Below the pieces are notes generated by a model. That model was not told the DNA's origin. It saw nothing but the letters and a program-made list of their open reading frames with translations, and ran no database searches. From Psammoneis japonica (Eukaryota): DNA of 53,846 nt. Position numbers and translations under genes: made by a program. The stretch spans positions 1 to 53,846 of the forward strand of contig QPGO01000331.1 in assembly GCA_008632985.1 (NCBI GenBank), given 5' to 3'. Positions within the stretch are counted from its first letter, which is position 1. Each line of letters starts with the position of its first letter. Below are positions 7,535-50,788 of this stretch, piece after piece.

Positions 7535-7724
7535 CAGAACATGCTTTCGGACAGTAACACCTAACACCGAATGAATCCAGATTTGAAAACAAGACCAGCC
7601 CAGGAAGTGAGTCCGTAGGGCCCTACAGTAATCATCATCATCACAGAAGATCCGTGTCAACAACATTGACGTCATCACGAACTCGTGCATACTCTACAGT
7701 CTACAGTCTTCTCTCTAGAGACTA

Positions 7725-20999: not shown

Positions 21000-22701
21000 C
21001 TTTCGAAGACGCGGCGGCGGGTGCCACCGGTGTTGTTGAAACACAGGCTGCTTGAGCCTGTGGTTGAAAGGGCTGACCTTCGCTGCGGAAAAATGTTGGC
21101 TCTGCTTTTGGTCATTCTTGTGAAGAGCCAAGAGAAGCCCAGCGCCAATGTGTTTCTTCATTCTGCAGCAGCAGGAGGCAAGCAGCACAGAGAGGGACAA
21201 ACGAGAGTGACAGCTGTGCCAAAGCGTGCAAGTGGTTCGAAACAAGAAGAAAGCCTCACCTCGGGGAGCCCCCCACCAGTTTTCCTGATGCCCTGCCAGC
21301 CAGCCAGCCAGCCAAGGGCAGCCAGGACAAAGAGCACCTCTCTCACACATGAGCGCTGCTGCTGGTGGGCCGACCTCAAGCGGGAGACGTGTGGCGCTGC
21401 CACTGCACGACCACCCCCTCTGTGCTGCCACAGCGGCTGGCACAGTGCGCTGCCTGCCCTTCTGCCACCTGCCGCTGGTCAAAACATGCAGCAATTTTTC
21501 AAGGCCAAAGCCAAGGATCTGCGTTGGAGAACATGAGACAAGGTCACAATGTGGGATTTTGCTGGCCTGCCCAAGTTTCAAGTTCAAGGTCAGTTTGGGC
21601 ACAGAGCTCACAAGGAGAGCTGGTGCTGGCACCAAGCATGCAGCGCACCTGCCACATGGGAGCGCGGCACTCCACCAGCAGCTCTTGACTTTCCCTGCGC
21701 AGCCCTTGTGCAAACACGCGCCACCCAAAGAGCAAGACTGCATTGCCGAGCAAAAGATCACTCCGCCAGGCTCCACAGGTGCCTCCCCACTTCTCAAAAC
21801 TGTCAGAAGCTTTCCAACACATGCTGCGCCAGATTCCCAAACACAGCCAGGCAGTGGTCAAAACATGCGCTCCAGCATGCCGGACAATCTCAAAACATGC
21901 ATGAAGCCCAGGGCACACATTCTTTCTGCGTGCAAGAGCTTTCCCCAGTGTGAACAGTTGCTGTGATGCTGCTGGTCATGGAACAGGGCAGAGTTGCTGC
22001 GCACACTGCTGCCCACCTCCAGCGCAGTGGGCGCCCCAAGTTTTCATCATCTGACTGCCCCAGCGAACCCAACAAGGCCCCAGTCCTGTGACGTGCTGGC
22101 TCCAGCTTCCAAAAGATGCTGCCGCAGATGTGGTGCTTGCCGCTTTCAGAAATCTGCAAGGAATGCCAAGGCCCAAGACTTTCAACCAACCTTGAGATGG
22201 CTGGCAGCAGCAGCACATGTGTGCACACTCTGCTGCAGACAATTTTGACGTGCAGGAAAACCAAACTCATTTTGACTGTGTTCACAGTTTGGGGACAATG
22301 TGCTGGCAACCAAAAGCTTGCCAGCGAGGTGACACCTCTTGCACACAAAACTCACTCAATGCTGCCTTTTTTGTCTTGCTTGGGCAACTTTCATGTGGAG
22401 GCCACCAAGCTTTGGCACTTGCAGGGCCCTGCCACCTGGGCTGTCCTCTTGCACAGCCAAATTGCTGCGCACTGCGCACCATCATCTGACGTGGCATGGC
22501 TGGCTGCCCTTGGTGACAAGCCTTCGCTGCTCGCACCCAGGAAAACGGTGCGGCCATCTGCAGCGAGGTCAACAGCTCAGAAGGCTTGTCAGCCACACGC
22601 CCTTGGACCCATGCCACCCTGTGCGAAAGAGCCACTGGCTGCCATGCGTTGCGCCTTTTGCAATGGCATGGTGTCCTCTGTGACGCAGCAATGATGGGGA
22701 G

Positions 22702-22757
<56 letters not shown>

Positions 22758-23340
22758 NNNNNNNNNNNNNNNNNNNNNNNNNNNNNNNNNNNNNNNNNNN
22801 NNNNNNNNNNNNNNNNNNNNNNNNNNNNNNNNNNNNNNNNNNNNNNNNNNNNNNNNNNNNNNNNNNNNNNNNNNNNNNNNNNNNNNNNNNNNNNNNNNNN
22901 NNNNNNNNNNNNNNNNNNNNNNNNNNNNNNNNNNNNNNNNNNNNNNNNNNNNNNNNNNNNNNNNNNNNNNNNNNNNNNNNNNNGTGTGTGTGTTCTTGCC
23001 CTCTCTGGAGCAGAAAATGGAGCACCCCCTTTCAAGAAGAGACCCACATCAAGTTTTGCTTGGTGGTCTTGGGCACAAACTTTGCATGGTTGGAGTTCCC
23101 ATCAAAGGTCCTGTGAGCATCATTTTTTTGTGAGAGGGCAAGGGCCTTTTTTTGTTGGGAACACTTCAAGGGGACCAAACAAATGGAGCTTTGTAAAACA
23201 ACCTGCACTCTTGCATTCGCCGTGGTTGTTCTCTCAGTGCAAAAAGGAGTCTCAGAGGGGCTGCACCTGGCCTCTGAGGGAGCTGATGAGGGGCTCGCAT
23301 TTTGAGCTTGTTGCCTCACTCACTTGTTGGTTGCACTGCA
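21000..23340. other. TpA-free island with no recognisable coding relic
   Basis: No TA seen in 21000-22757 and one in 22984-23340 (manual scan). Rich in TG/CA; contains a (CCAG)n tract at ~21296-21313. Confidence 0.85.
22708..22992. repeat. (TG)n microsatellite spanning an assembly gap (N 22758-22983)
   Basis: GT repeats on both sides of the N run. Confidence 0.95.
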
Positions 23341-24091
23341 GCATGCCTTAGAGTGTGCCGTTGTGATTGTAAAAGCAGTGCTAGGTTGTGAGCAGCTGAG
23401 CTGCTTCCACATAAACAGAGGCAACACATTTTGTACGACGGAGCACGCAGCATGTGCGCGCGAAGATGGCGGCTTACTCTGCACTTTCTACTCTAGAGCG
23501 GCTAGAGTTGTTGACTTCAATGACAGCTACAGTTGTGCGTCACTCTGCTTTTGAAAGGCATACTGTAAGTCAAGAGATTCCAGCTTCAGCCAAGCATTTC
23601 AAATGGCCCGCTTCGACTACCTTTGCTTCTCGTTAGTAAAAGTTCGAATCAAAACCTTCATCATCATGCATTTGGCTAGAAACTATCGCTAGATACTTGA
23701 GCTGTTGCACAAATGAGTGCCAGTGTGCTTAGCTCCCCATCTTCTGAAACCAAAAGTCATGACAAATCCAACTCGTTGTTTTGATCCTCGTCAATCGCCA
23801 CCTTTTTCCACAGCGGTTCATTCCGTCCATGTAGTCCTCGCTTCATCCATTGAATGCTGAACAATTTGAGAAAATTGCCATCAATCTCAAAGTAATATCA
23901 TCGTCCAATAGACCACACGCGCCACCAATTCCGCTTCTTTCTGCGCGCTTGCTCAGTTGGTAGGTCTACCATGAGATGGATCCTGAATGACCCAAAAAAT
24001 CTTTGAAGAATAATTGTCTTGCTTCGGCTTCAGAAGACCGGCACTCGCATCGACGCTTTTCCGTATCCAAGACATATGTTTCTCTTCTATC

Positions 24092-33249: not shown

Positions 33250-35882
33250 TCATTCGTGCCGGTAAAGCAACTTCAAATTGATATCTTCATTGTTCGACAA
33301 CTTATCCGCGTAGACACCAAGAGCCCCCCATGGCTCCTCGTACCCCGTTGTGATGGAATAATGGGGCTGGCGGTTTGATAGTCTTGGGCGTACTTGCGCA
33401 GGAAGTCTAGTTGATGCAAGTGCTGTCTTGGACACGTCTGGCAGGTTTGTTGTAGCAACCATCATATTGCGATCGACGTCCGTAAATCGGAATGCCCCAT
33501 GATCAGCGGTGTCAGCCTAGTTCCAAAATCCAGGAAAGATGTTCAATAATCAAACATACATGTGGTCAATCGAAAATCACACTTCACTTACTGCTAAAAT
33601 AAGAGCATCCCCGTGGTCTGGTGAAAACTTTTGTTTCAATAAAGTCGATTCGTCAAAGGGCGGCAGCCATCCTGGGTTATACCTGGTAAGCATGTAACTG
33701 TGTCCGAGAACGTCGTTTACAGCCATGCCTAACGCACACGGACCACAGAGGAGTAAATCGAACCCTGATCTCGGCTTCCAGACCTCCATGTCATCTTCCG
33801 TGGCTGAATGGCAGATGTCGCGTTCAATGTCGTATATATCCGCACGATTCAGAACGAATGTCAATACCCGCTCAACAACTCGAACCAAAAATATGTGACC
33901 TGGCATCGAACCCATAAACCCGTTCCACAAGCAAAAATTTTCGTCTGCATAGTCCGCGACTACGTCAAGAGGCGCAAAGAATGACATGTCCGGTGTAATG
34001 AATGTATCAAGGTTTGCATCCAGTTTCACGTCAACGTCGGCGTAGACACCTCCATCTCTTAAGAGCACTAGATATCGGAAAAAGTCAGCCTGCATAAATG
34101 AGAAAAATGTACGTGCATCAGCATGTTCGAGGAGGGAATTTTGAGGGAAGAAGCGGTACAAACGAGCATGCATACCTTGTATGCTCCTGGAACCAAAGCA
34201 TCGAAAGCATCAACAAATCGCTTCGGGTAATGCTTCACAATGTAGTCCCGGGCGCTCTGATCGGTGTAGAACCTGTATTCCCATCCAGAAGTCTTCCACG
34301 TGTTCTGCAACCGCGCAAGATCGGGGTATCGGTCGGACGTGATTTCATCCCACCACGTCTGATGGACAATTCTTGGTATTCTTCCATGTCGTCGGATTCC
34401 ATCATCGATAGCTTTTTGTGCCGGCGGTCTTGAAACTGAAACCTCTACTGTCACTTCTTTCCTTTTACTGTTTATAGGTGAAACGCAAAAGAATTCCTTC
34501 ATGTTTCTTGGACAAGGCAGCTTACACGCCGAAAAAGATCCGTAATAAGGAGCTCGAAGACATCGCGTACAAAGCCAACTAGGAATAACGCCGAGGCGTT
34601 TCATGACTTCCTTCGTTGGGGTCTTGAGTTCTTTAACTGGCTCAGGTGTGTTCTTCGCTTCTTCAATAGTCACTGTCATCTTTGACTGCTGCTGTGGCAG
34701 AGCCTGACCGGCATTTGTGGTAGAGTCAGCAAGACTATTTTCAATCGTCACGTAAATGCTGTCCCCTTTATGTAGTAGAGTCGTAGATCCTTGACTTTCT
34801 AATTTGTTTCTGCTGTCCGTGTCAAGAATTGTGGAAAGCAATTCCGCGGGAGAGGTCGTGTTCTGTAGTCCCTTAATATCGTACATCAAAGACTTCACAT
34901 ATGAATGGCGAGGAGAAACCGCAAACAGACAAAAGTCCAGATTGTCCTTGCCCGTTTTGGTTTGGTTTGAAGCTAGTTGCGAAGTGGACTGCGCGAATAC
35001 CACCGCACCTCGAGCCATACATGGTTTGCTCTCTTCAAGCAAGATGTGGCTGAGTTGTTCATCTTCCGTATCAGAGACATGAGTAAGATCTCGGACATGG
35101 TCTGCGACAAAATAGCCTCCAAACTGATACAGGCTGCAAAGAGCCCAGATATAGATTCTATCTGAGTTTGAGGCGGATCTGTAGGCTTCCTCAAGACTTC
35201 TACAGAAGTGCAAAATCGTCCTCCGCATATCTTCCTTATCAAAGAGAATCACATTACCAGATGCCCCTCGGATTGGCTTGATCCACTCTGTAGGCTGGAG
35301 AATCACGTTCGGGATTCTGGAAGGAAGTTTCAGCACAGGCCCCGAGTTGCGCGTGTTGTTGCGCCAGAGTGAGCACGATTCCTCCCACTCGCTAGCTTGG
35401 TATGTTAGATTATGCAGTGAATTTTCTCTTTGAGCAGCTTTTGTGAGTGTCTGTACTAGTGCCCCGTTTGAGAGACTATGAGTCGGCATCTGAATCCCCA
35501 ACGACTGCAATCGTGACTGTCGTTGTAGCAGCGTTTCGTCATAAACGCGAGAACGAACTTTCGAGTCCACATATAATCCAAACCGTCCACCTCGAAAGGA
35601 ATAAGGGGATCCAAATATTGTCCGATGATAAGACCAGTATAAGCCAAGTACGAGAACGCAGAGGCAACAGAAAGCGCGCTGGCGTTGCTTTCGAGAAGAA
35701 CAGAAGCGAGATAACCGAATAAGCAAAAAATGAGACAGACCACTGAATGACTTCCAATGTTGCTTCGATTCCTTCTCCGTTTGAACCGTCAGGTCGAGCT
35801 TTTGGAACGGAAAAGACACACCGCCTCGAAAACGTGGAGACATATCACAGTTGTTGCTTGCAACCGCGCCTCGTTTTTTCAT
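33250..35882 (-). CDS. GT32 DXD glycosyltransferase (OCH1-like mannosyltransferase), paralog A
   Basis: N-terminal TM anchor; RIPRIVHQTWW and GAYK|ADFFRYLVLLRDGGVYADVD. Introns 34090-34175 and 33517-33591. Degenerate second GT32-like module in the N-terminal half. Confidence 0.9.
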
Positions 35883-36106
35883 CTCATCGTCCTGCTGTGC
35901 TTTTTTTGTTTTCCGTTTGTTGTTCCGTCGGCGCGGTCGCGTCGCTCTCGCTCGGCGGTGTAGGGCCTACTGTACGGTATGTGTTCTGTGGTTAGACTCT
36001 AGTGTGACGTGTGACGGTGGAGCATATTACTTTTATACGGATTTAAAGATCGAAATATTTTAACGGTGCGAACTCTATCGTTTCAAAAAATGCTGTTTAC
36101 AGCGCA

Positions 36107-36292
36107 GTGCCAGCACATGATGCAACATCATGCCTTCAGCAACGCTGTCATTTTTCGCCCATTGTGGTGCCATGCGATGGTCTGATTGGCAAGGAGGCTC
36201 AAGCCGCCCTACGTCAGCTAGCGGGAAAGATTTCTAACAAGTGGCAGAAAAGCCCTGTTTGGAAGTGTGTGGCTTCTTGTCAACGCAAGTGA
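36107..36292 (+). mobile_element. 3' fragment of a CRE-like non-LTR retrotransposon (C-terminal restriction-like endonuclease region)
   Basis: CLQQRCHFSPIVVPCDGLIGKEAQAALRQLAGKISNKWQK resembles the CxxxxxHFTPFVxSxDGLLGxEAxxxLxxLAxxLxxKW tail of such elements. Confidence 0.6.
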
Positions 36293-37499
36293 GATTCAGC
36301 ATGAGGACTCAACAAACACAGCACTGATGCAGGCCACACTCTTGTGATGCACAAGCATCCAGGACACCAGCCAAATGTGCTGCAGTCAAGCAGCCTCAAA
36401 TGGTCATGTGTGGCACATCATGCCAGTGCCACAGCAGCAAAGTCAAGTGAGCAATGACACACCACAGAATTGAGCTCGTCCTGTGTTGCACCCAAGAATG
36501 ATGGAACATTTTTGTGGTGCATGACTTTTTTTTAAGTGCGGCTTGTTTGAAAAATGACTGGTGGCAAATCCAGGGAAAAGCTCTAAAAGTTGCACTCACA
36601 TGCATTTCAGCAAAAGTCAACCTGGGCTCTAAACCTCCTCATTGTGTGTCCAAAGTTTTTCTGCCACAGAGGAGGGGCCAACAAATGGTTTTGCTCAAAT
36701 GTTGCCATGATTTTTTGGGTGCAGCACAGGATGTGCTGCAAAGAACAAGAGAGGGGACAACCCCCCATCAAAAGCATGAGTTCAGGCATGCAGCAGATGG
36801 GCTGGTCTCTGCTGAAAAACCCAACAGGGAGGTTGTTGGCAGTGATGAGAGATTCTCAAAAGCAACAACAACAACCAGCCCGGTGGCAGCATTGCATGTC
36901 ATCGTGGTCAACAAACCCTTTTGTTGGATTTCAGTTGACTCCATCTCACAATGAGCATCACACCAAGTCTTCTTCATCTGAGGCAGCAGCAGAGACTTTT
37001 TTGTGAGTTGAATGCCCGCCTGTCTTCACGCCAGGAGTTTTTGACACTTGGATGAGTTCAAGTGTCAATTTCCCCCATCAGAAGCCCAGACACGGGCCTC
37101 CACACAATCCAGTGCAAAGTCCATCCATGTTCTTAGTGTGTGCCACACCACATGCATGGCAACATGCTCTCTCATGAGCAGATTGCTGCTTTGTGCTGGA
37201 GCTTTCGTGCACCTTGACACACAGACTTGCAGATCCTTGGTTGAGCAGCTGTGCCTCTGTTCTCTTTGAGATCTTCATGAACATGGAACATTTTGATGAC
37301 AGCAGGAGCATGCATCACATGTCAAATCAACAAAAAAAGACCAGATCCATGTTTTGAGTGCTGTCGCTCCTTTGCCACCAGCTGGGCTGGCGCCAGCTGA
37401 CCCACACTTCCAGCACACCATTGATTGTGGCAGAAGCTCATGGGGATCAGCCAGAATGGACATCACCTCACAGTGACGCCCCACTGAAATAACCAGCAA

Positions 37500-40400
37500 C
37501 AGAGCAAGTGTCACAAAGCATGGAGTTCTTCATTTTCTTGAGGCTTTGCATGGTTTTGCCACAGCAACGCAGTTCATTGTCCATGAGGTGGAGTGGGACA
37601 TGTGATCTTCCACTGAGTTCAGCAGCACATCTCTGTCTTTGGCAAGGTGCTCCTGTTTTTTGTTGCACGTTGCCGTGAGTTTGGCTTCCACTTGTTTGCA
37701 CTGAGATGATTTCCTGGTGTCTGCATCACATGACCATGCACCTCTTTGTCATGCTCTTCCCACAACTCCCACCAGGATTTCCAAGTGCAGGCTCCAATTT
37801 GCACTGCCCAAATGGGAGGTGAGTGATTCTCCTTGTGACACTTTTCCAGCAGTCCTGTGCTGCAAAGATGCATTTCTTGAAAAGTGCTCCAAAGAGTGGA
37901 AAAATGATGGTTGAAAACTTGATGCCAACCCATGTCAGACTGGGCTCTCCACAAAGGACGCAACATTGGGGCAATGTTGTCATTGCATGTCATCTCTCAC
38001 CTTGAAACCATGCTTCAATGGAGGACAAAATAAGATCACACAATGGGGACATTGTGTTGATGTTGTTGCAGAGCTCAAGGAGGCCTTGTGGGAATTTGCA
38101 ATGCCAGGTTTCATTGTCAGGGCAGCACAAAATGCAACCCTGATCTTCCCTGGGATGTTCGCAAGAAAGGTGATGATGTGGTCTCACTGGATTGCAATGG
38201 TGAGTGATCTTGTTTGCAGGAACAAGAAGCTCATGGATCAATTTGACAGCAGACACATGTTGCTTTGAGAACTGGTGCACCAATGCAGTGTGCATGGACC
38301 AGTCTGTTTTGTCTGTGATTGATTCATCCCATTTGTTCCTTTCCTGAATGTGCACCCAAGCAGAGCAGGAGCTGCGCCAGTGTGTCAAACCGCAGATTTG
38401 AGCCCTGTGGCAATGGCCCTGTCTTGAACACTCAGGTGGGATTGGCAATGGGGGAGGGGGATCACCTTGATTGTGTCAGATTTGCACTGACCTTGATGTC
38501 ATCATGTCAGTGTGTTGGCATGCATGTTGATCTGAGCACCAAGAGGGAGAACTCGACTGGAGAGTGTCTGTCCTGATGTCCTTTCACCCACTCAAGAGCA
38601 GGAGCCTGGGCTGGAGAAAAAGGATTGAGGATTTTTCAATGGCTTGGAAGGTCTGACAAATCTTGTTGATGATGTCCCAATCAGATGACAAGATGTTGGC
38701 ACCATGCTTGCACAGTTTAAAATCTGTCTGGGGGGTGGAGACTTGAGCTGAAGGATCAACAGAAGGACTGCTGTCAGACAATCAGGAGAGAACTTGAACA
38801 AGAGCCCTGTTGTCACACCAGTTGTCAACACCTTTGTAAGATGACATTTTGCAAAATTCAAGCAGACAAAAAACAGAGCGTGTCAGGGACATGAACCCAC
38901 AGGCCTCTGCTTGGCACAAAGAAGGCATTCTGTCAAACACCAGTCTGGCACAATCCACCAATGTTCTCCCATCAAATGCAATGGTCCACCCAAATGTTGC
39001 TTTCTGTAGATGCACAGACCCATTGCTGCCTGTCACAAGGCAATTTGATGCAAAGCAATCCACCAGTTTGAGCGGGGAAAAACATGGAATTCCATGTCAG
39101 AGGACAGGGCAGACTCCCAGGAAGGCAATGCTTGCAGACAGTCTTTAAAGAACTTGGGGAGAGGAGGAGGTGTTTCCACTGTCAATTTTGACCAATGAGG
39201 AAGACATTGGCACTGTCCATTGCAGGTGGAGATGATCTCCACTGGGCAAGATGAGTCAGAAGGATCAGGAACCATTTCAATTTGATGCCGGGATGTTGCC
39301 ACTGTGTCCTGGGCCAGAAACACATCAAAACTGGATGGAGACCATGCATGCAAATGTGATTCCTTTGGAGACCAACAGGCAGAGGCCTGCATGTGCATCT
39401 TGGAAGGAGGCACTGACCAATCTCCCAGAGGGGCTCATGGTCTGGTGGAGTCTGGATGACACAACAATTCACACAGGCATGTCCAGGGACCCCATGCTGG
39501 ATGACAAGGTTTTGTTCATTCAATGTTGTCAACAGTGCTGACACTGCTCAGGCAAGTTGGATCACTGCAGACCTTAAACTTGTCCAGAAAGCATCCATCT
39601 GCCATGGCAATGTCCAACACAGTGAGAACCCTGAGACACAGACAGCAATGGTTGATCCACTAAATCTCTCGGGACAAGAATTCTGAAGACTCCAGAGCAA
39701 CATGTCCACCAAGAACTGGTCGTCATCTCATTGCAGAGGTGGCACCCCATCTTCGTGTCAAATCAACAAAGACATGGACACCCACAAAACAGCCTTCTTG
39801 TGCCTCCATTGGGCATTTGCTGCTGGCAGGAAACCAAGATTGAGCAAGCTCCTCAGCACAAGTCAACTCACACTGGAGCTTTTGGCTGGCCACATTTTCA
39901 GCCATCACCAGCTGCTTCTGTCAATGTCACAATGGTTCTTTGGTGCTGCTCACAAGCAATCTGGCACAGTTGTGAGCAGGCACTCATCTCTCAACTGGTG
40001 TTTCTATCAAGGAAGGCTGGGGGCAAGCCCTTGCTGGCCAAATGCCTTGCTTGAGATCCTGTTCTCAACAGCTGCTGCAGCTGAAAATGGGCTGTTTTTG
40101 AGGAAGGATTTTTCAGGTGAGCAAAAGGTTCAAGAAGCATTGCTTGCTCATGATTTTGCAAGACAGCAGAGCCAAAAGATGGTTGGCTCAAGGTGCAAAT
40201 TTGGTGGTGCTGCAGAAATTGTGGCTTCCATTTTTTTGCAAGGGCTGGACAAGGTTGAGAGTGTGCCTTGAGACACCATTTTCTGGTGTGTGCACATTTG
40301 AATTTTTGCAGGGCGTGCTCTCACAACAAGTTTCGAGCTGTGTTTGGAGACATTGGGCTTGAGCACAAAATGACCAAAAGCAACACAGAGGTGCTGCTGG

Positions 40401-41700
40401 GCTGTGTTGTTCAACATGAGTGACCTGGAAAGTTCTTGGTTGGTTGGCCAGGAGGAGTGGGCTGTTGGTGTTTCTTGACCAAGAAATGATCATGACCAAG
40501 GCAAATGGATTTCTGCATCAAAAAAAAGGAGGAAAACAGAGAGGCACCACTTTGAAGATTTGTTGGAAGTCACGTGAGATCACACCTCTTGCACTCACTG
40601 GTGTGCATGGGGGCATGCCAAGTGTGCTGTCTCACAACTGTTGCCACAATTCTGTCTTGGTGTCTTGGCCGCACCTTCTGCATGTTTTTCTGTTCAAGCT
40701 CTGGCACAAATGTTGCCTTTCTCTGACAGTGTGACAATGGTTCTCACCTGCCCATTTTGACTGCTTCTCTCATTGACATGCCTTCATTTCATCATCACAA
40801 GCAATCTCATGCATTGGAAAGTGACTGACATTGAGCTCTTTTGGCTTGTTTGCTTGTCATTCTTCTCCACTCTTCTTGGTGTTTTCTTCCTTGTGTGCCA
40901 AGTTATTTTGCAAATTCTGCGTACTTCAAAAGTCATTTCAGATGGTCAACTTGGCAAACTTTTGGCTGCGTTCCATCCACACCTCTCAGGTGTCAATGAC
41001 CCCCCTTCTGCCTGTTGTCAATTTAAGTTCCCTGCTTCACATGGCAGACAAAAATCTTCCATCATTGCTGCACTCAGAAATTTTGAATGTGAAAGAACCA
41101 GTTCAGCATGCACTGACCTTTCTTCCATGTGCCAACAACTTTGCACAAGTTTTGGTGCATGTTCTGTGTGTCTCAAAATTAATTTCAAACAATTGACTTG
41201 CCAAACTGTTGACTGCTCTTTGTCCACACCTCTCAGGTGTCAATGACTCCCCCTCTGCATGCTATCAGTTTAAGTTTTCTGCCGCCCCCCATGTGGCAAA
41301 TGAGAATCCTCAATCATTGCTGCTCCAAAAAGTCTGAATTTGAGGCTGGCTCAGCATGTGTTGGTGGTTGCTTCATGCCCCACTCTTTCTCATTTTGAAA
41401 CATTTCCTGACTGTCTGTTTCACCTTGGCAGCCAAATCTGATCCCAAGAAGAGAGCCTTGATTGCAGCATCAAGTTTTGACATCTCATTCATTTTGCTGG
41501 TCCTCTTTTTGCTGCTGCCAGCTGTTTCCAGTGGGTGCCACAGATTTGCAGTGTCAATCTTGGCCAGCTGCCATGCACCTCTGCCACATTGTGTTGGTGT
41601 GCAAGGGGTTTGGGTTGGCTTGTTGTGTTGCCAGAGTTGCAGGGTGGAAGCACAGCAGCACTGCAAGAGCAGATGGCTTTGGTGTTGAGTTCAATTTTTG
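37500..41700 (-). mobile_element. Degenerate diatom LINE (Ambal-like) with RNase H and zinc-knuckle C-terminus
   Basis: RNase H relic LVTGSNGSV..ATFGWTIA...PSLCQAEACG...WCDNRALV (38782-39063). Also SSDWDIINKI, HLSCEHPREDQGCILCCP, QSDMGWHQVF and WINHCCLCLRVLTVLDIAMADG (39591-39668). Many stops; boundaries approximate. Confidence 0.75.
40977..41358. repeat. ~135-bp imperfect direct repeat
   Basis: CCACACCTCTCAGGTGTCAATGAC...TTTAAGTT...ATCATTGCTGC...TCAGCATG at ~40977-41110 and ~41224-41358. Confidence 0.8.
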
Positions 41701-44369
41701 CACCATGAGAAAAAGAACTTCACAACACACACCTTTGCCCACACCCACACACACCATTTCACAGTGACTGCAATGATGAGACTGTCATGATGCACCACTG
41801 ATGGTCAAAGACTTCTGCAGAACTTTGACCCACAAAACCCAAGCCTTCCACTGAAGATGCTGCAAGCAAATGCACATGTTGGTCATTGAGAACAAGTTGG
41901 TGCTGAACTTTCAAAATGTTTCAACAAAGAGGGTGCCACAGCTGCAGCTGCATGTGCTTGTGACAGCTCATTGGAAGTTGATCATGGGCAAAGCATGTTG
42001 CTCATTCTGTGGCTTGCTGCTGTCTCCAAAGTCAACAACCAAGAGATGATTGTCTCAGGAGGCAGCACCCACCCTGACACACAAAATCTGGCAAAAACAG
42101 TTGGAAGTTGGAAGCTGCCCATGCCAGCATGATGGGCAAGGAGCTTCCAGCCTGCTTTCTTCTAACTTCTTGGTGTTGAAGCAAAGACATGAAAGTGCTT
42201 GCCCCTCTCAAAAGATGCACAAGCCAATGTGATCTCTGGTCATGATGTGCGACTCCTCAATGGCAAAGAACTCTCCCACTCCAGAGCCCAAAAGGACTCA
42301 GTGGTTGTTTTGCTTTGTTGATTTTTCAGGAGATGCTTGAGTCTGCCTTGCTGTGAGCATCAAGATTTGTGAAAGTGGCGACAGTGTTGAATGTTTGCAA
42401 CATGGATAACGGGCTTGTTGAGCTGCCAGTGCACTGGACATGCAGCATCAGTGCTCACTTTGGAGGTGTGGGTGCAGCTGCCAGCCTGGAAGGCAAAATC
42501 GAAGAATGACAAGGGTCTCACAGAACTCAAGGAGCTTCTGAGCTGAACTGATGAAAAGATCAAGAGCCTTGTGTCTTGCAAAATTTTTAGACTTTTTGGC
42601 AGAAACACTGCTGCACAGTCAAATGATTGTTTTGTGCTGCTGCCTGCTTGTTGAGCCATGGAAGAAACTTGCTTTAGCTGCTCAGTTGGTTCTTTTGCTC
42701 ACATGCTCTGGCATGTTTCAACAGAGCAAAGCACTTGAAAAGTGCAAACGTGGCAGAAGCTAAGCTGCACATCAAATGAGCAACTGCAATGTGAGCACCT
42801 TGACACTCCAGCTGCAGAGTGCAAAATGTCAGCCACCCAGTTGTGGAGCATGTGAAAAATGTGTCAGATGGCTGTCAACTGTGGTGGACAATGATGCTGG
42901 GCAGAACAAGAGCTGAATGATCCCTCACCTTTTGTACTCTGTTTTTTGTTGAGCACCACATTTGCTGCACACAAGACAGCAAGGCTCTGAGTTTGCAATC
43001 TGCTCAAGAAGCAACACCATGAATCCAGTGTGTGATGCACAGCTGCCAAAATGACAGAATTGCTGAGTGTCAAAATTGAAGGACCTTGTTGGACACTTCT
43101 GCACTTCATCAGGGGGGTGACTTTAAAAACTGGGGCCACTTTTTTAATGCACTGTGCTGCTGGTTTGCCAGGAAAGTGCTGGTTTGCCAGGAAAGGAAAC
43201 CATGCAACAAAAAAAATCACATCTTTGCCATGACCCATGGGAAACAAGAAGCAAGAAGATTGAAAGTTGTTGCTGGGTTGCTGTGTTGGCTGGCTGAAAG
43301 ACATTGGCAGCACCATTGCACTGAACATGGTGCTGAGAAAAACAGGCACTGAGGGGGGACAATCAATCTGACCTCTTGATGGGACAAAACCAGAAGTGGC
43401 CCCACATCTCCAGGCATTCCAGGCACAAACCTCTTCAAGTGAGACACAGTGGCAACCACCCATTCTGCCAGCTTTCCAAGATGATGTCTGCCCAACTCCC
43501 ACAGAGGAAGAGACAGAATGGAGCAAATGTGAGCAGGACATTTGACAAAAGAAAAAAATGTCATGGAGCCAGCAAACCAGGGAGAAAGGCAACATTAGAA
43601 GCAACAAGCAAGAGCAGGGTTGATGGCAAGACCATGACAGCAGCTGTGTCTGTTCTGGGTGGCGCCATGACTGCAACAATGAATCTGCCACCACTCTCCA
43701 CTCAAGCTGTGCTCTGGAAGTGACTGTGCACATGATGGAGCACCAGCACACAACCATGTGCTGCTGCTCAGTGAGCAGACACTTGCCTGAGACAAAGGTT
43801 GGGTTTGTGACTAAAACAGAGTGAGTGCATTGTCATCTGTTCAGTGTTGGAGCATCCAGAACAAGCAGGAAATGCAAGAGACCCAGAAGCAGATCCATTG
43901 AAGAGAAGATGCTTTGGATCCTGATGTGGTGGATCAGACGACACTTTGGAAATGAATGTGCACTTGTTGCCAATCTCACCAACTTTCTTTTGTCTCACCG
44001 ACTGGAGTGAATCATCCAGTTTGCACAAATTGTGTGTTGTGGTGTCAGCAGGCAGCACCTCTTGCATGATCACAAGATTGAAGTTCATTGAAAGCTTCCA
44101 GGCAAACCACAGCCATCACAGCAACCAGCACAAGTGTGACAGGCAGCACAGGAAACCTTGGAGAGGACTCTCTTTTGATGACATGGACCCTTGTTGGTTC
44201 AACATTCACTCCAAAGAGTCAAGAGCACTGTGTTCAGTGCATGTGGTGCCAACCTCCATTTTGTCATCTGAGTCAGGAAAACTGCACTGTGAGTGGCAGA
44301 GGAGGAGGTGGAGGAAAGGAGGAGGAGGAGGCCAAGGACACAGCCAAGGCAGGGATGGCAGAGGAAAGA

Positions 44370-46600
44370 AGTCTTGCTGCAACAAAAACAAAAAGACTGG
44401 TGACCCCAACAAGAGTTTCAAACTGGAAATGAAGTTTCATCCATCATTGATGAACAGCAACTCATGCAATTTGATGGTCAAAGACATCAAGGAAAAGATC
44501 ATCAACCATGAGCAGAAGGAATGTGATCAAGATGTGCATCTGGCAAGGTCCCTGGAAGACATGGCATGCATGACGTTCACTGGTGACAGTCCAACGCTGG
44601 TGATGGCAATGCCAGCAGTGCGCCAGCAGAGACAGGCAAAGATTGCCTGACCAAGGCAAACAAGAGGGCCAGAGAAGAAAGGCAACTGGAATGTGAGCAC
44701 AAGATCAAGTTACAAGACTGTGGTGAGAAAGCAAAGAAGCTCAAAGACAACAGAAGCACTGCACTTGTGGTGATCCCAAAGGATCACTGTTCCAAGCTGA
44801 TGGAGCAGAGAGTGCAAGCTGACCCCAGTCATCAGAGGATCAGAGATGACCCAATGAAGCTGCTGAAGCTGATCCAGTCACTTGTGTTCAACTCCATGAG
44901 AGGTTGAGACCCCTCTTCCACACACTTGCCAACAAGTTCCCAAAGCACACACTGGAAGTGAAACAGCTGGAGGATGAGTCACTGAATGTCTTCCTGTCAA
45001 GATTTAAGAATCAACGGGGTGCCACAACAAGTGATGGTCTTGACAGCAAAATGTTGGACAGATTTTTTTGTCAAGAATGCCAAGGAGTGCAAGGACTGTG
45101 CTGCCACAGCAGATGAGCAAATGCTGAAGGATGCTGCTTTCAAGACATTGACAACACACCTGTTTGTGGATTGTTGCCACAAGAGCCTCAAAAAGAGCCT
45201 TGTGAGAGACTGCAGCCCAGGCAAGGATTCACATCCAAATGCCCTCAAGAAGGCAATGGATGTGTTGCTGAACTGTCCAAAGGATGCATGATGATCTGCG
45301 CAAGGGGTGAAGCAAGAAGAACAACAATGAATGCCCAAAAAACAAGAAAGAAGACAAGGGCACAATTGCATGCTGCCCAACAGCCTGCAAGACCAGAGTG
45401 ATGCACACAGAGTGGCAAAACAGCATGCCATTGTTGTGGTGAGCCAAACCACAAGTCTCCAGACTGCAGGTGCAAGGATGAGATTCCACAGAAGGGCTGG
45501 TGTGAGAACACCTGTGAGAGATTGGTTGCCAGGGACAGAGTCGTGCACAGAGAGACAATGACAATTCATCAGTGAGCAGTGATGAGGACACCAGCGTTGA
45601 CACCCACAGGTCAAGTTGATCTGCAAGCTCCAACAGAAGAAACATCACATTGCATGGGTTCCAGTTGGATGAACAGGCGCTGAAGAAGGGCCAGACATGA
45701 GTTTGAGCCAAGCTGATGTCAGCATTGAGTCAGATGAGATCATCCTTGACAACAGCTTTGCTCTCTTGGTGTGGCAGCAAGTCAGAAACTGGTGCACAAT
45801 GTGCAACCAGCAAGGATCAAGATTGTCCTTTCTGCCAACACAGGAGTGGATGCTTTGGACAAAGTCCACCCTGTGCCAGGATGGGGTGAGGTGAAGCTCA
45901 GATCACAGAATGCAGCAGCTGACATCCTGAGTCTCAAGGATGTGAAGAGCAAGTGCTGCATTGCACATGACAAGAGAGTGGCAGACAAGCTCCATCTGCT
46001 GGATGAGAAGACTGGCAAACAGGTCACAGTGTTCAAAGTTAATGACATCCAGCTGCACACCTTTGCACCAAGCCAGCAATTCTTTGACAACACAAAAGAG
46101 CTTCAAGAAGGTGAGTCAAATGTGAGCATGCTGTCAAAGGACAAGAAGGTTGCAAAGAAGACAAGCAAAAAGCACAAGAGTGTGTCAGGAGCTCTTGTTC
46201 TGACTGTGAAACAGAGTGTGAAAGGCCACACTAAACAAGAGGCAGCAAATGCTTCTGAGGAAGCATTGAGACTGTGCCATGAGGCTGGAATGCCCAGTGC
46301 GAAAAATTTCAAGCTGTTTTTATGTTCAAACCAGAGGTGAAGAACCTGCCCATTCTCCCTGAAGATGTGGACAGAAAGGCAGCCATGTGGGGTCCACTGA
46401 CAGACACACTGAAAGGCAAGACCAAGCATGCACACCATTCCCATGAGAGGAGTGACATCATTGCCATTCCACCTGAGATCCGCAAGAAGCAGAGAGAAGG
46501 TGTGACCCTCTGCGTTGACTTTGTCGAAGTGTGCAGTGCCAACACACTGCACGCAATTGACGAGAAAATTGACTTGCTTGTCAGTTCAACATCCAGTGTG
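44370..46600 (+). mobile_element. Truncated Ty1/copia (CoDi-type) gag-protease-partial integrase relic
   Basis: Gag: EMKFHP...IKEKIINHEQK, RIRDDPMKLLKLIQ, KQLEDESLNVFLSRFK. Knuckle CHCCGEPNHKSPDC (~45426-45467). Protease IILDNS and VPGWGEV. Pre-integrase/integrase LCHEAGMPS, WGPLTDTLKGKT, VTLCVDF. No LTR identified. Confidence 0.8.
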
Positions 46601-48170
46601 GTTGCAGAAACATGGCCACCCAAAGCTTCTGCAAGGAGGTGCTGTTTTCCACACAAAACATGCCGAAAAATGCCGGTCCTCACATGGCAGCTGGTTTTGT
46701 CATCCTGTTGATGTGCCCTGCACCATCTGCCCAATGTTGTTGAACTTGATGTGAAAGCACAATGTTGTGGCATTGAAATGGCAAGAGTTGCTTTTTTGAC
46801 CATTGCAATTGTCACCCATGACTGAGCACAAAATCTTCAATTTTTTGGTCACTGCCAACACACATCATTGCACACTGTCACATGCTCCACCTCATGTCAC
46901 CTTGGAAGTCATGATGCAGAAATGTGCATTGTGCCTCATTTTCTTGCAGAGTTGCCATTTTTCTTGCAAAAGCACAGTGTGGCCAAGATTTGAGTTGAGT
47001 GCAGTTTGGGATCTCATTTTTTCATGTTTTTGGGGGACACTGAGACACAGCTGGAAGTCAAGATTGTGCCACAATGATCTTTGAACTGCCAGTTTGTGAA
47101 CTCACTTGATGGAGTTTGTGCATTGTGGAGGTTCAGCAGTGCTGTGGAACAGAATTGTGCAGAGCTGTGTGCTGGCACATGTCTCTCTGAAGTGGGCTGG
47201 GGCAGGCATCCTTTTTTTTTCGCAGGTGTGTGTGAGGCACAAGCCACTGGCTCCACGCCCCATTGTCAGAGTCTCAGAGCTGCCAGAGGCAAGCCATCAA
47301 GCACCATCCATTCCACAGGATTCCCCCCCCCCAAGTTTTGTGCTCACAGTTCTCTTTTTGTTGCCGGTGTCCAGCTTCTCATTTTGTCTGTGCATCACGA
47401 AGTGTGTGCTTTGCCACATTTTGGGGCCAGGAGGGTGGTCACAGGCGAATCACACATTTTTCTGCGTTGATGCAATTCATGGATTTTCCTGCTCATGTCT
47501 TTGGAAAGCAGAGTAAAAGTTAATTACCAGCATTGACATGTACACAATAGATGCCCAATCATTGTTGTTCCCTTCGCAGACCTTTTGATGAGCCTCAGTG
47601 GGCGGCGCGGACGCCCGGATGGACCGATTGTTCGCAGCCGTCCGTCTTCCAGCCGCGAGAGCCTCCTCTGCTGCACAGACGAACACTGCGAAGCGCATGA
47701 TTGCGTCGCCGAGGGCGGAGGCTCACGGTTAGCTCTAGCTAGTTGGAGAGTGCGCTGCCCAAGGCTACTACTAGAGAAGTAGCGAGTAGCGAGAGGCCTA
47801 GCTAGAGAGTAAACGAGTAGCCGTGACGTGCAGGGAGGGAAAGTGAAATAATGAAGAGTATCAGCCAAGAAACGGCGAACCATGGGATCGGCAAGACCGA
47901 TCGTCGCTGCTCAAACTGTCCCAATAACTTTGCTTTGTGTGTGTTTTTTTAAACCACAATGTGAAAGTGAGGTTGTACAGCATCGTAATAAATCTATTTC
48001 ACTCCTAGTAGCTCGAGAGCTGCAAGTACTGGTTTGAATGTACTAGAGAAGCTCATTTTCAACCGCGCGTCCGTGGGTACCAAAGAAGCCAAAACCGTGT
48101 AAACTTGGAAAACAACGATTCTGGCATCCAAAACCGGTAAACCCTGAAGAAGAGCAATTCTTTATACCCC

Positions 48171-50788
48171 CTATACTACTACCATTTTGAATCTGATAGT
48201 TTCGCTTGTTGCCATTTTGTCAGTGTACACGCCAGTTGCCCCCCACGGCTCCTCGCGCTTTGTTGTAAGGGAGTAATGCGAATTTCCCTGGGATTGTTGT
48301 AAACGAGAGTGGTCAGCTGGTTCCAGCGATGCTTTTGAGACTCCTGGAAGATCTGTTGACGCCACCATGATGTTCCGTTCGACATCTGTAAATCGGAAAG
48401 CCCCATGATCTGCCTTGTCTGCCTTCATAAACAGGAAAGGTGAGGAAACTCATTGGCTGCGCGAAGGGGAAAAGGAGTGCTTCATAATCGCACGTACCAA
48501 CAAAATAAGGACGTCTCCATCGGTAGCAAAAGACTGGTCCTTTGAATGTTTTACTTCCACATTAGGCAGCCATCCTGGACGATACTTGGCTAGAAGATTG
48601 CCATGGCCAAGCACGTCATTGACAGCCATTCCAAGAGCACAAGGACCGGAAAGTAGTAATTCTGGCGTGGCCCTCGATTTCCAGATCTCTGTATCATTGA
48701 AACGAGCTGTGAGGCAGATGTCCAATTCAACATCAAAGACATCGGCGCGATTCAGAATGAATGATACTAGTCGTTCAATGAGGCGAGCTAGAAACAAATG
48801 ACCGGGTTCTGTACCAATCAAGCCATTCCATAGGCAGAATTTCTCGTTGGCGTAGTCTGTCACTACGTCAAGTGGTACAAAAAAAGACATCTCTGGTGTA
48901 ATGAATGCATCAAGATTAGTATCCAGCTTCACGTCAACGTCAGCATAAACACCTCCATCTCTTAGGAGCACCAGGTAGCGGAAAAGGTCAGCCTAACGGT
49001 CAACACAAAATTCCACCGAGAGTCAGATTTCGTGCAGGGATTAGTAAGATGGACCCCAATTGCAGTCCTTACCTTGTAGGCTCCCGGAATTAACGCATCG
49101 AAAGCATTCACAAATCGAAGCGGATAGTGTTCCACAATGTATTCGCGGGCACTCTCATCGGTGTAGAACCTATAATCCCAGCCGTGTATTTTCCATGAAT
49201 TCTGAAGACGCACGAGGTCTGGATATCGGTCAAACGTTAGCTCTTCCCAAAAAGTTTGATGGATAATTCTTGGAATCCTTCCGCCTTCCTTGACTCTTTC
49301 ATCAAGGGTTTTCGATGGCGGTACCTCTGAAATTTCAATCTCAACCGTCACTTCTTTTCGTTTAAGTCTGTTTGAAACGTCGCAGAAGAATTCTTTCAAT
49401 TGGTTGGGACAAACCAATGAACATGCTGAAAAGGACCCGAAATAACGTGCACGAAGACATCGCATGCATAGCCAGCTAGGAACGATACCACGTCGTTTCA
49501 TTGTGTCCTGCATGGATACCTTCCGTTCCCTGACTGGCCGATTTGTGTCTCTTCTTTCCCTTATAGTGACTGTTTTCGTCGTTTCTTTCGATAGCGATCC
49601 TTCAAGATTGAGATGAGTGTCGATAAGACGGGCTTCCAGCGACGCGTATATCATGTTGTTCTCATGACACAGCAAAGTAGTAGCTCCTCGACTTTTCAAA
49701 TCATTCCAGTCGTCCTCACTCATAAGCGCGGACTGCAAGTCTGTATGGGAGAAAAGACCATTGCTGTTTTCGAGTTTTTTCATGATGCATTTGAGGTACG
49801 GGTTTCGCGGAGAAACGGCCAGAAGCAAGAGTTCCGGCAGTCCATGGTTGTTTGCAACGTCCTTAGGGTTCGAACTATCGATATGCAGAAACACCATGAG
49901 CCCTCGTGAAGCGCAAGACGTCTCCACCCTTGTCAAGTTTTCGGCTTCAATTCCTTTCAAGATTGAAGAAACATGACGAACGCGTTGGCCACCAAAGTAG
50001 CCTCCGTACTGAAATAAGGCACAAAAGGCCCAAACGTAAAGCCGGTTTTCGACCGAAGCCATTCTGTATGTTTCGGACAATCCGCTGCAGTTCTGTGAAA
50101 CCATCTTTATCATCTCGTCCTCCTCGAAACTAATAGCAGTAATTCCTCTCATAGGCTTTATCCACTGAAGGGGCTGAAGAATCACTTTTGGGATTGCGTC
50201 TTGCGGTGGGAATAAAAAATGTTGCTCATGACTGACAAGGTTCTCGTCTCTCGAGCGAAAACAGGATTCTTCCCAACTATCGGCCTGATGCGTAAGATTC
50301 TGCAACATGTTGGCCTTTTGCTTATACCTGATGAGCATCTCAACCAACGCTGCCTGTGGAAGCACAGGTGCTTTTCCTCTAGCCGGCTCCGAAACCGGTG
50401 GGAGCTTAATCCCCATTGATTGCAATTTCATTTCCCGCTGCCGCAACGTCGAATGATAGACAAAGCGTCGGATTATTGAATCCGTTAGCCTTCCCAACAA
50501 TCCGCCGCGGATGGAATATGCTGGACCGAATAAAACCTTTCGCAATGGCAAAAGCATCGCAAAAACAACAACACAAGATAGTGCGGCTCGATTTCTTTGC
50601 TTTCTCAAGGCCAGACACCGCGAAAGCAGAATTGGGGGTGTAAGAGGTCGCTCTATGAAAGATTTAAATTTTTTTCTTCTCGAATCATCATCACTTCTTG
50701 CCATGATTGCCCCTTCTTCAACATCTTTGTGATCATGATTCTCCGTATGGTTGGCAATGGCCACGACTCCTCTTCTTCTGATTGACAT
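48171..50788 (-). CDS. GT32 DXD glycosyltransferase (OCH1-like), paralog B
   Basis: RIPRIIHQTFW and GAYK|ADLFRYLVLLRDGGVYADVD. Introns 48993-49072 and 48423-48497, in the same positions as in paralog A. Confidence 0.9.

Follow-up and report, generated by a model that had tools for sequence, protein, structure and literature searches.

The question raised by this locus is how one stretch of diatom DNA can hold blocks almost devoid of TpA, of which one keeps most of its CpG and another has lost that too. The window, meaning the whole stretch of DNA that was analysed, comprises 53,846 nt of Psammoneis japonica contig QPGO01000331.1 (GCA_008632985.1; positions 1 to 53,846, forward strand), and the named homologs of one gene flanking the blocks are from diatoms. 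Dinucleotide counts delimited three TpA-poor islands, unrelated to one another in sequence, at 8257-16190 (A together with A2), 20996-23349 (B) and 36235-47514 (C); the rest of the window (32278 nt) was used as background, with a TA o/e of 0.62 and a CG o/e of 1.01. TpA o/e is 0.02-0.05 in A, B and C, and CpG o/e is 0.66 in A, 0.37 in B and 0.10 in C. Island C (36235-47514, 11280 nt) contains 35 TA against about 469 expected at the window background frequency (o/e 0.05) and 63 CG against about 658 (o/e 0.10), with TG and CA both at 1.84. Island A (8257-14376, 6120 nt) contains 9 TA against about 255 (o/e 0.02) but keeps about two-thirds of its CpG, with 259 CG against about 357, and its CG content differs from that of C at p = 1e-65 (chi2 = 293). 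The original prediction of two strata, one without TpA and CpG and one without TpA only, is borne out by these counts, and its by-eye estimate for 43021-44640, about half a dozen CG, corresponds to exactly 6. The counts also brought out two stretches that it had not described. Island B (20996-23349, GC 55%) has 2 TA (o/e 0.02) with CpG at an intermediate level and is interrupted by an N run at 22758-22983, the window being scaffolded, while A2 (14377-16190) is partly converted (TA o/e 0.12, CG 0.88, TG 1.61, CA 1.57) and carries a long inverted repeat (14464-14701 / 14941-15176).

TpA loss is saturated in these islands, and CpG loss has progressed only part of the way. The longest TA-free runs measure 2921 nt (A), 2198 nt (B) and 1193 nt (C). 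At 1-kb resolution, TA o/e never exceeds 0.09 between 36501 and 47500, where TG and CA lie at 1.59-2.20, and never exceeds 0.10 between 8001 and 14000, where the TG/CA mean is about 1.5-1.7; CpG o/e per kb inside Island C runs from 0.02 to 0.21. TG and CA stand at 1.5-1.8 across A, B and C, and the summed frequency of TA, CG, TG and CA is 0.2433 in A, 0.2469 in B, 0.2377 in C and 0.2394 in the background (overall range 0.238-0.258). Since this sum stays constant at about 0.24, both losses are best read as transitions into TG/CA, the convergence of routes that had been predicted. For Island C, which has neither homologs nor Pfam matches, this constant YpR pool is the one guide to the ancestral CpG and TA content. 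Both strands are affected, as there are 1279 TG and 1304 CA in Island C. The boundaries of the two losses coincide: at the left edge of C, TA and CG depletion begin together at about 36235, and at the right edge TA is back at 47514 and CG is sparse up to 47465.

The direction of both changes can be read from a broken, Crypton-like gene of tyrosine-recombinase type in Island A (11298-13706, + strand), delimited by homolog search and tblastn frame pieces. It belongs to a large, patchy family with 1083 homologs (best identity 55%), whose proteins have about 800-1000 aa and share a conserved C-terminal block, ...RKG...RGEW...Y. A Tyr that is invariant in 17/17 homologs is His in the window. In all, 12 of the 12 conserved-Tyr columns have become His (8) or Cys (4), including 9/9 in the N-terminal part alone, and further NTA>NCA/NTG changes are found as four I>T, two L>S, one V>A and one I>M. 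The homologs have a normal Tyr content (median 3.8% among the 150 matches listed of 1083), and the 29 metagenomic relatives of the gene have a TpA o/e of 0.24-0.76, none of them being TA-free over the gene. This comparison supports the view that Island A lost its TpA secondarily, by targeted conversion to TG/CA, and that low TpA does not characterise the family. CpG-type changes are found at 4/14 conserved-Arg columns (R>C twice, R>Q and R>stop), and the in-frame TGA at 13235, for which an origin from CGA had been proposed, occupies a column where 22/24 homolog sequences have Arg.

Affiliation of this gene with Cryptons is suggested by its nearest Atlas clusters (leads 0.89-0.93), in which Phage_integrase is carried by 18% of members, NDC10_II by 77% and GCR1_C by 56-71%, domains that are associated with Cryptons; one of the GCR1_C-carrying clusters is from Bacillariophyta. 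Neither the window ORFs nor 10 homologs matched Phage_integrase in Pfam, and a PDB profile search found nothing, so that Crypton membership is a lead only. The view that ORFs in this region are largely intact held in part. Two Island A ORFs, of 520 and 368 aa, stand out from dinucleotide shuffles, the longer one exceeding every ORF in 200 shuffles (largest 434 aa), but the recombinase-like gene has two frameshifts (near 12443 and 13411) and three in-frame stops, namely the TGA at 13235, a TGA at 12399 where homologs have Trp, and one in the last frame piece. The putative 520-aa ORF (8463-10022, - strand) has no recognised function, with no homolog in a word-indexed search, no Pfam match and none in viral contigs; it lacks Tyr because TA is absent from Island A. 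The terminal inverted repeats described earlier for this region are represented by one 28-nt inverted pair (7719-7746 / 10852-10879, 89% complementary), which bounds a unit at 7719-10879 with GGCCTCAAACGTTCCCG-like motifs repeated at both ends, and a TA in its left arm is TG in its right arm. The left 540 nt of the unit (7719-8257) still contain 12 TA. The TA-free domain thus starts about 540 nt inside the inverted-repeat unit, and the target is not simply the element.

Islands B and C offer less to identify. Pfam scans gave no match among the 16 ORFs of Island B, no credible match among 77 ORFs and one read-through of Island C, no viral or TE domain among the 161 window ORFs scanned and no reverse transcriptase in any island, and homolog searches found no homologs of Island C. 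Only Island A has an identifiable mobile-element gene, and no viral gene was recognised in the islands. The longest ORF of Island C has 322 aa against 218 +/- 40 in dinucleotide shuffles, close to chance, in agreement with its description as a region of shattered ORFs. In Logan contigs of run X1, the depth of Island C is about 55-60, equal to that of the flanks, and much of the island is single-copy; multi-copy parts reach a depth of 794 at 41477-42010 and 200-370 at 43.6-46.8 kb. Contigs from X1 reads recovered 81% of sampled Island C 31-mers, although X1, the only run with the sequence, is from one sample that may be the source of the assembly, and its contigs are therefore not independent of the assembly. 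Differences between the window and X1 are unpolarised and carry no information on a mutation rate. Other copies of the Island C repeats have 90-95% identity in a comparison that took in 173/343 contigs, which suggests that they may belong to an old family. A CX2CX4HX4C zinc-knuckle motif in a multi-copy part (45426-45467, + strand) is a weak hint of a possible retroelement gag remnant; the frame around it is not significantly open, since its 616 codons include 13 TGA where about 2.9% per codon is to be expected whichever frame is read, and searches with it found no homologs.

The two losses differ in rate. Under first-order kinetics, removal of 97% of the background TA level with 66% of CpG left in Island A gives a k_TA/k_CG of at least 8, and the data support a fast, targeted TpA erasure and a slower CpG decay, in line with the original prediction and with the loss of 12/12 conserved Tyr against 4/14 conserved Arg. 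Similar TA-erased stretches, with a CpG o/e of 0.54, occur in metagenome loci L020 (about 1260-3221) and L026 (1-985). Locus L011 combines TA at 0.20 with CG at 0.40, and loci L027 and L028 have stretches of CG at 0.21-0.23 while TA is normal, so the order in which TA goes first is not universal across organisms.

A TpA-directed process has been described in one alga, the chlorarachniophyte Bigelowiella natans, a precedent that the prediction had not drawn upon. Mettrop et al. report TpA-only A/T>G/C hypermutation of integrated NCLDV and virophage DNA at about 1000 times the baseline rate, a rate that fits the proposal of an enzymatic TpA erasure (Mettrop et al., bioRxiv 10.64898/2026.01.13.699255). 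In mutation-accumulation lines, 230/231 mutations in two viral inserts were A>G or T>C, all at TpA, and they arose in single-copy integrated DNA during clonal growth. From the figures of that study (211 mutations, 3132 generations, 6169 TpA) we calculated about 1.1e-5 per TpA per generation, at which 97% erasure would take about 3e5 generations; this rate would be more than 100 times that of CpG decay, even if methylated CpG is assumed to mutate 100 times above baseline. The diatom islands resemble this system in that A/T>G/C changes convert TpA to TpG/CpA, seen here as conserved Tyr becoming His or Cys, and in that the changes are regional with clear limits, leave the baseline genome unaffected and, in the diatom probably, fall on foreign or mobile DNA. 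The differences are several. The host here is a diatom (Stramenopiles) and not a member of the Rhizaria, erasure is saturated (TA o/e 0.02-0.05, against 0.45 in the active NCLDV region), CpG decay is superimposed, and what can be identified of the target is a putative transposon relic of recombinase type together with multi-copy repeats, without a recognisable virus, whereas the proven targets in B. natans are integrated viruses. A literature search found no report of TpA hypermutation in diatoms; the one alga in which it had been described is unrelated to them.

Repeat-induced point mutation (RIP) of Neurospora and other fungi is likewise a defence-like, region-limited, dinucleotide-specific transition hypermutation of repeats and foreign DNA that can saturate. 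RIP converts CpA to TpA, raising TpA and AT content and making TAA/TAG stops. It runs the opposite way from the islands, where TpA is destroyed, CpA/TpG are enriched, GC is slightly up (Island A 0.507, background 0.480) and the changes cannot yield stop codons, and fungal RIP was rejected as an explanation. The CpG component is like methylated-CpG decay in silenced transposons, with CpG>TpG/CpA found only in repeat islands, boundaries in Island C that match the TA-free domain, and Arg replaced by Cys, Gln or a stop in Island A; the near-total loss in Island C is extreme for a passive decay.

We consider it probable that the islands are silent mobile-element DNA of the diatom nuclear genome, hit by two separate transition processes. 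The first is a region-targeted hypermutation of TpA to TpG or CpA, equivalent to A>G on either strand, which has saturated A, B and C and ends abruptly at the island margins, the adjoining genes being a few hundred bases away. It has the same signature as the TpA-only hypermutation of integrated viral DNA in B. natans. The agent is most likely a DNA-acting enzyme, for which an adenine deaminase of the ADAT2/TadA type would be the foremost candidate. The second and much slower process, CpG>TpG/CpA, most likely reflects 5-methylcytosine deamination in repeats that are presumably methylated, and it has taken away about 34% (A), 63% (B) and 90% (C) of CpG.

We give even odds to the idea that islands with less CpG have been exposed for longer, and reading the gradient of these three to four islands as an age or clock is plausible. 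As the islands are unrelated, factors besides time may have set their CpG levels apart, and CpG decay tracks the methylation of each island, so the CpG difference is not established as an age difference. It is accordingly a serious, though lesser, possibility that TpA was erased as proposed and that the CpG gradient reflects methylation level or starting CpG, with neither time strata nor a clock. CpG o/e spans 0.00 to 1.28 among the relatives that the Island A gene has in other organisms, the spread within Island C points the same way, and in Phaeodactylum methylation is associated with some of the (young) TEs, and DNMT5a loss depletes methylation and de-represses young TEs (PMC9998398). Exposure time is favoured by the single path of the TA/CG points (A2 0.12/0.88, A 0.02/0.66, B 0.02/0.37, C 0.05/0.10), by the ORFs beyond chance and the 55% identity to relatives in Island A against the lack of recognisable content in Island C, by the repeat copies of C, whose identity suggests an old family, and by the residual TA density, which at 3.1 per kb in C is about twice the 1.5 per kb of A (p = 0.04), as expected if TA slowly regenerates.

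Other readings concern the erasure itself. Because TpA is palindromic, T>C and A>G are indistinguishable from the end state, and the near-equal TG and CA counts in C and the split of Tyr>His (8) and Tyr>Cys (4) would also suit oxidation of thymine by a TET/JBP-type enzyme to 5hmU or 5fU at TpA, with 5fU:G mispairing leading to T>C. In dinoflagellates, TpA is a preferred site of 5hmU, and 5-formyluracil promotes T>C mutations. We regard this route as unlikely; the B. natans authors favour an ADAT2-like adenine deaminase, a candidate that they name and did not test (10.64898/2026.01.13.699255). The 5' U preference of ADARs, stated in the same source, and the possible gag remnant in Island C could fit ADAR-like A-to-I editing of element dsRNA at UpA, followed by reverse transcription and re-insertion, but this is very improbable. 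Both strands have been erased completely, non-coding DNA included, and the boundaries in the genome are sharp. The TG and CA counts show no strand-asymmetric A>G, the identified gene is recombinase-like and not of a retroelement, the Pfam scans revealed no reverse transcriptase in the islands, and the B. natans mutations arise in integrated single-copy DNA. The lack of relatives for Island C would allow that the islands never had TpA (or CpG), through intrinsic or selected composition such as avoidance of a TA-cutting nuclease. This is more improbable still, since the Island A ancestor had TA, as the 12/12 lost Tyr and the TpA o/e of its relatives indicate, the genes are broken, making selection on them unlikely, and the YpR pool equals the host background. 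Least probable of all is an assembly or base-calling artefact, for which the dependence on a single run from the same sample and the scaffolding of the window could be cited; X1 contigs recover most sampled Island C 31-mers at flank depth, comparable islands are present in another project's contigs, and the process was measured directly in B. natans (10.64898/2026.01.13.699255).

Under the preferred reading of an enzymatic, TpA-directed hypermutation, the few residual TAs define a context rule. Those with a 5' T or a 3' A make up 39/46 in the islands against 511/1341 in the background; random transitions from TG/CA as the source of these TAs would predict 45% (binomial p = 4e-8). TTAA alone accounts for 13/46, against 7% expected, and TTAA and CTAA/TTAG sites are spared relative to other contexts, a rule not mentioned for B. 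natans in the part of the preprint available (10.64898/2026.01.13.699255). This sparing and a mutation type unable to create stop codons are the details new here. As TA>TG/CA cannot make a stop, inactivation proceeds by missense changes, and intact ORFs are a biased mark of age. TpA erasure leaves no Tyr codon, not even the one for the C-terminal Tyr that is invariant in relatives of the recombinase-like gene, and no signal that contains TA, TATA and AATAAA among them.

We tentatively suggest that a TpA-directed DNA hypermutation defence may be common to diatoms and chlorarachniophytes, and maybe old in the SAR supergroup. In diatoms it would be complete within roughly 1e5-1e6 generations of silencing, would follow a tetranucleotide rule sparing TTAA and CTAA/TTAG, and would disable invaders without stop codons. 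If this is true, invaders would lose all their Tyr codons, including those for the recombinases' catalytic Tyr, in the YXDD motif of reverse transcriptases and in HUH transposases, together with every TA-containing promoter or polyadenylation signal, and TpA erasure combined with the slower methylated-CpG decay would provide a two-hand clock for dating insertions.

A sliding dinucleotide profile and a list of the gaps between TA dinucleotides were used to locate stretches depleted of TpA. Three sharply delimited islands were found in the window: A (8257-14376), which is extended less completely to 16190 by a segment called A2 (14377-16190), B (20996-23349) and C (36235-47514). Island A (6120 nt) contains 9 TA (observed/expected, o/e, 0.02) and 259 CG (0.66), with TG at 1.54 and CA at 1.65, and A2 (1814 nt) contains 14 TA (0.12) and 93 CG (0.88), with TG at 1.61 and CA at 1.57. 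Island B (2128 nt) has 2 TA (0.02), 60 CG (0.37), TG of 1.82 and CA of 1.70, its length and content being as assembled across an internal 226-N scaffold gap (22758-22983). In island C (11280 nt) there are 35 TA (0.05) and 63 CG (0.10), with TG and CA both at 1.84. The remaining 32278 nt hold 1341 TA (0.62) and 1880 CG (1.01), with TG at 1.13 and CA at 1.11; at this background frequency ∼255, ∼88 and ∼469 TA would be expected in A, B and C. The CG content of A and C differs with a chi2 of 293, and together with the dinucleotide counts this makes the two-level pattern real and far beyond chance. The original prediction of islands depleted at two levels, one lacking TpA and CpG and the other keeping CpG, is thus confirmed, and its estimate of about six CG in 43021-44640 proved exact. 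At the left edge of island C (∼36235) the TA-free and CpG-poor domains start at most ∼15 nt apart, and at the right edge they end 50-300 nt apart, with CG sparse to 47465 and TA resuming at 47514. Self-blastn of the window revealed neither similarity between the islands nor an LTR pair.

The summed share of TA, CG, TG and CA among all dinucleotides is 0.2394 in the background, 0.2433 in A, 0.2576 in A2, 0.2469 in B and 0.2377 in C, and it lies at 0.22-0.27 in 29 related metagenome loci. Transitions of the types TA>TG/CA and CG>TG/CA should leave this YpR pool constant while shifting TA and CG into TG and CA, as is observed, and the result bears out the expectation that both routes converge on TG/CA. 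A different native composition or transversions were rejected as explanations because neither would yield a constant pool. The excess of TG over CA on the sense strand was also dropped as a signal, since background genes carry the same bias.

The direction of change was read from a gene in island A. For its ORF at 11295-12398 on the plus strand, 1083 homologs were obtained with a cut-off of E ≤ 1e-3 (top identity 55%), and long homologs match 11298-13706 in three frame pieces; two frameshifts (near 12443 and 13411) as well as in-frame TGA stops disrupt the window copy. Tyrosine has a median content of 3.8% in the 150 homologs listed and is absent from the window copy. In an alignment of this copy with 25 long homologs, 162 of the 232 conserved columns are identical in the window copy, and all 12 conserved-Tyr columns are changed, to His in eight (TAY>CAY) and to Cys in four (TAY>TGY); the N-terminal part alone accounts for 9/9 such columns. 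Further changes (I>T four times, L>S twice, V>A and I>M) are those expected from NTA>NCA/NTG. Eight of the 14 conserved-Arg columns are kept and four show CpG-type transitions (R>C twice, R>Q and R>stop). The column of the TGA at 13235, put forward originally as a probable CGA to TGA change, is occupied by Arg in 22/24 homologs, in support of that reading, and the column of the TGA at 12399 by Trp in 13/25. A metagenome search with a query alignment of five sequences gave 29 loci of the gene family, which have TpA o/e of 0.24-0.76 over the gene, none being TA-free there. The Tyr and Arg column changes and the TA-bearing relatives, all read from sequence comparison, show that the absence of TA in island A is derived and complete, and that CpG decay has begun and is partial. 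A composition intrinsic to the family, which the original prediction had named as one reading that would refute it (for the CpG difference), is thereby excluded for TpA. Two of the 150 listed homologs, P0207 (257 aa) and P0217 (143 aa), are devoid of tyrosine and rich in Cys/His, and are probably further TA-erased copies.

No credible Pfam match was obtained for 25 + 77 + 84 island ORFs and one read-through. The island A gene family likewise gave no Pfam domain in the window ORFs or the homologs scanned, except in P0148, a long homolog (1093 aa) whose C-terminal part matches the Ulp1 protease domain (PF02902, E = 7.8e-6), and a profile of the family found nothing in the PDB. In a language-model Atlas, a full-length homolog adjoins clusters with Phage_integrase, NDC10_II and GCR1_C, one cluster being from Bacillariophyta; Crypton tyrosine-recombinase transposons are associated with these domains. 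At the end of the family's conserved C-terminal block, 17/17 homologs share an invariant Tyr, which is His in the window copy. A Crypton-like identity of the gene is therefore best treated as a lead. On the minus strand of island A, a 520-aa ORF exceeds every ORF in 200 shuffles, and had no homolog in a word-indexed search or in viral contigs. The description of the 8.3-14 kb ORFs as largely intact fails for the frameshifted, stop-bearing Crypton-like gene. A 28-nt inverted pair lies at 7719/10852, in the region of island A. A2 carries a long imperfect inverted repeat (14464-15176, arms of ∼240 nt, 80% identity), within which a 27-nt palindromic unit occurs twice (14833-14859 and 14875-14901). 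Island C has no ORF beyond chance when compared with shuffles, as its description as shattered had implied, and none of its 77 ORFs matched Pfam. For its gag-like stretch no homolog was found and the frame is not significantly open; stop density was consequently dropped as a measure of age. Contigs of X1, a sequencing run from the window's own sample, cover island C at the depth of the flanks (∼55-60), with two segments at 794 and 200-370, and many contigs (among 173 of 343 that were placed) match at 90-95% identity. The raised depth and these diverged contigs show that island C contains dispersed repeats.

It is unlikely that the islands are an assembly or sequencing artefact. X1 was the one DNA run listed as containing the sequence, and no RNA run was listed. 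It contains 81% of sampled 31-mers of 36001-46000, and its contigs match single-copy parts of island C at ≥ 99% at flank depth, the shared sample making this evidence not fully independent. TA-erased islands in metagenome contigs and an experiment on the alga Bigelowiella natans also argue against an artefact. Among the 40 differences listed (of 40 + 93) between the window and X1, 30 lie in the island, and 14 of 21 transitions interconvert TA or CG with TG/CA. These were rejected as a record of ongoing conversion, because ∼46% is expected by composition and the changes are unpolarised.

A precedent comes from mutation-accumulation lines of B. natans (Mettrop et al., bioRxiv 10.64898/2026.01.13.699255), in which 231/302 nuclear point mutations fell within two integrated viral regions; 230 of these 231 were A>G or T>C changes, each of them on TpA. 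The rate in the viral regions was ∼6e-7 per site per generation, compared with 3.5e-10 elsewhere, and only some lines show the hypermutation. In the same preprint, TpA-poor coding sequences are enriched in RT and DDE domains, and an ADAT2-like DNA adenine deaminase is proposed as the agent. The islands fall within the cluster criteria of the preprint and carry its mutational signature. The proven targets in B. natans are integrated viruses; in the window putative transposon relics are affected, to saturation (TA o/e ∼0.02). Literature searches on TpA, CpA and TpG in diatoms, and on TpA depletion in algae or in connection with RIP, found no report for a diatom. The window thus adds a diatom, with the process at saturation, to the single earlier description (2026), which concerns an unrelated alga.

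TpA erasure is regional, acts on both strands and is TpA-specific, and it is saturated while CpG and protein similarity are largely kept. With first-order decay in island A, k_TA/k_CG is at least 8 (ln(0.62/0.02) = 3.4-3.5 versus ln(1.01/0.66) = 0.42), in line with the proposal that TpA erasure outpaces CpG decay. From the B. natans data (211 mutations, 3132 generations and 6169 TpA), a rate of ∼1.1e-5 per TpA per generation was computed; by this arithmetic on another organism's data, 97% of TpA would be erased in ∼3e5 generations, outpacing any plausible CpG decay by orders of magnitude. An enzyme acting on silenced DNA would account for the erasure, with adenine deamination favoured over thymine oxidation. 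The loss of CpG would be due to 5mC deamination in methylated repeats; methylation of diatom transposable elements (TEs) is documented in Phaeodactylum (PMC9998398). The core of the original interpretation, fast targeted TpA erasure alongside slower CpG decay, both towards TG/CA, holds.

The residual TAs are not random in context. A 5' T or 3' A is present in 39/46 of them, compared with 511/1341 in the background and 45% expected if they were regenerated randomly from TG/CA (p = 4e-8). They are concentrated in TTAA (13/46) and CTAA/TTAG (15/46); relative to background, the density is 0.37 for TTAA, 0.34 for CTAA and 0 for ATAT, ATAC/GTAT, CTAG and ATAG. The hypermutation is therefore sensitive to bases beyond the dinucleotide, and these data suggest that it has a tetranucleotide preference. 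The TA>TG/CA change can never create a stop codon, TGA being reachable only from TAA, and it can turn TAA/TAG into CAA/CAG/TGG. Long Tyr-free ORFs thus persist, and 'intact ORFs' overstate youth; the elements would be inactivated through missense substitutions and the disappearance of signals that contain TA. Both the context rule and the no-stop property are, as far as we have seen, new.

The four segments can be placed on one path, in which TA drops first (0.12, then 0.02) and CG falls from 0.88 to 0.66, 0.37 and 0.10. That lower CpG means longer exposure has, in our judgement, about an even chance of being correct. It is favoured by the ORFs and homology retained in island A and missing from island C, and by the membership of island C in repeat families whose copies are 5-10% diverged. 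The residual TA density of C, ∼2-fold that of A (p = 0.04), also fits a time series. In contigs of another project, two metagenome loci that carry relatives of the island A gene have sharply delimited TA-erased stretches of their own (L020, ∼1260-3221, and L026, 1-985) with TA o/e of 0.08 and 0.02, CG of 0.54 and TG/CA of 1.6-1.7; the combination of lost TA with about half of the CpG therefore recurs, and at least one more organism among those sampled undergoes the process. Use of the pair as a clock is weakened by the small number of segments (four, mutually unrelated), by low CpG at normal TA in two loci from other organisms (L027 and L028), and by the fast saturation of TpA, which reduces it to a yes/no mark. 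The rival reading, in which the gradient reflects different methylation or different starting content, seems less likely than longer exposure.

Ordinary eukaryotic genes flank the islands, with 75-80-nt introns as read from spliced contigs in a second run, X2; the named homologs of one of these genes are from diatoms (Attheya, Cylindrotheca and Nitzschia), at ≤ 65% identity. In the minus-strand gene adjoining island C, an X2 contig skips 75 nt (48421/48497) and 80 nt (48991/49072), so that X2 appears transcriptome-like and the skipped stretches short introns; no X2 contig covers island C, which is not taken as evidence on expression. Island C has paralogous neighbours to its left and right (33438-34604 and 48344-49501; 955 nt at 70% and 104 nt at 76% identity), one having a Gly_transf_sug domain, and thus sits between tandem duplicates. 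The TA-free domain of island A begins at 8257, ∼540 nt inside an inverted-repeat-bounded unit and ∼560 nt from a Methyltransf_16 ORF (6287-7693, minus strand). The left end of the unit (7719-8257), which abuts the start of this gene, keeps 12 TA, and the remainder of the unit is TA-free. Selection may protect the promoter of the neighbouring gene, or the process may track chromatin state and not element borders.

TpA-only hypermutation of foreign DNA has so far one earlier report, a 2026 preprint on one rhizarian alga. The diatom footprint extends the process to another major lineage, which dominates ecologically and is open to genetic manipulation, and shows its end state, with putative transposon relics and not viruses alone affected. 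It explains the long Tyr-free, annotation-less ORFs in such islands. Gene finders would be misled by TA-free islands, in which only one of the three stop codons is possible, and homology-based repeat annotation would miss the TEs within them. Once calibrated genome-wide, the contrast between TA and CpG would provide a testable ordering of insertions in time.
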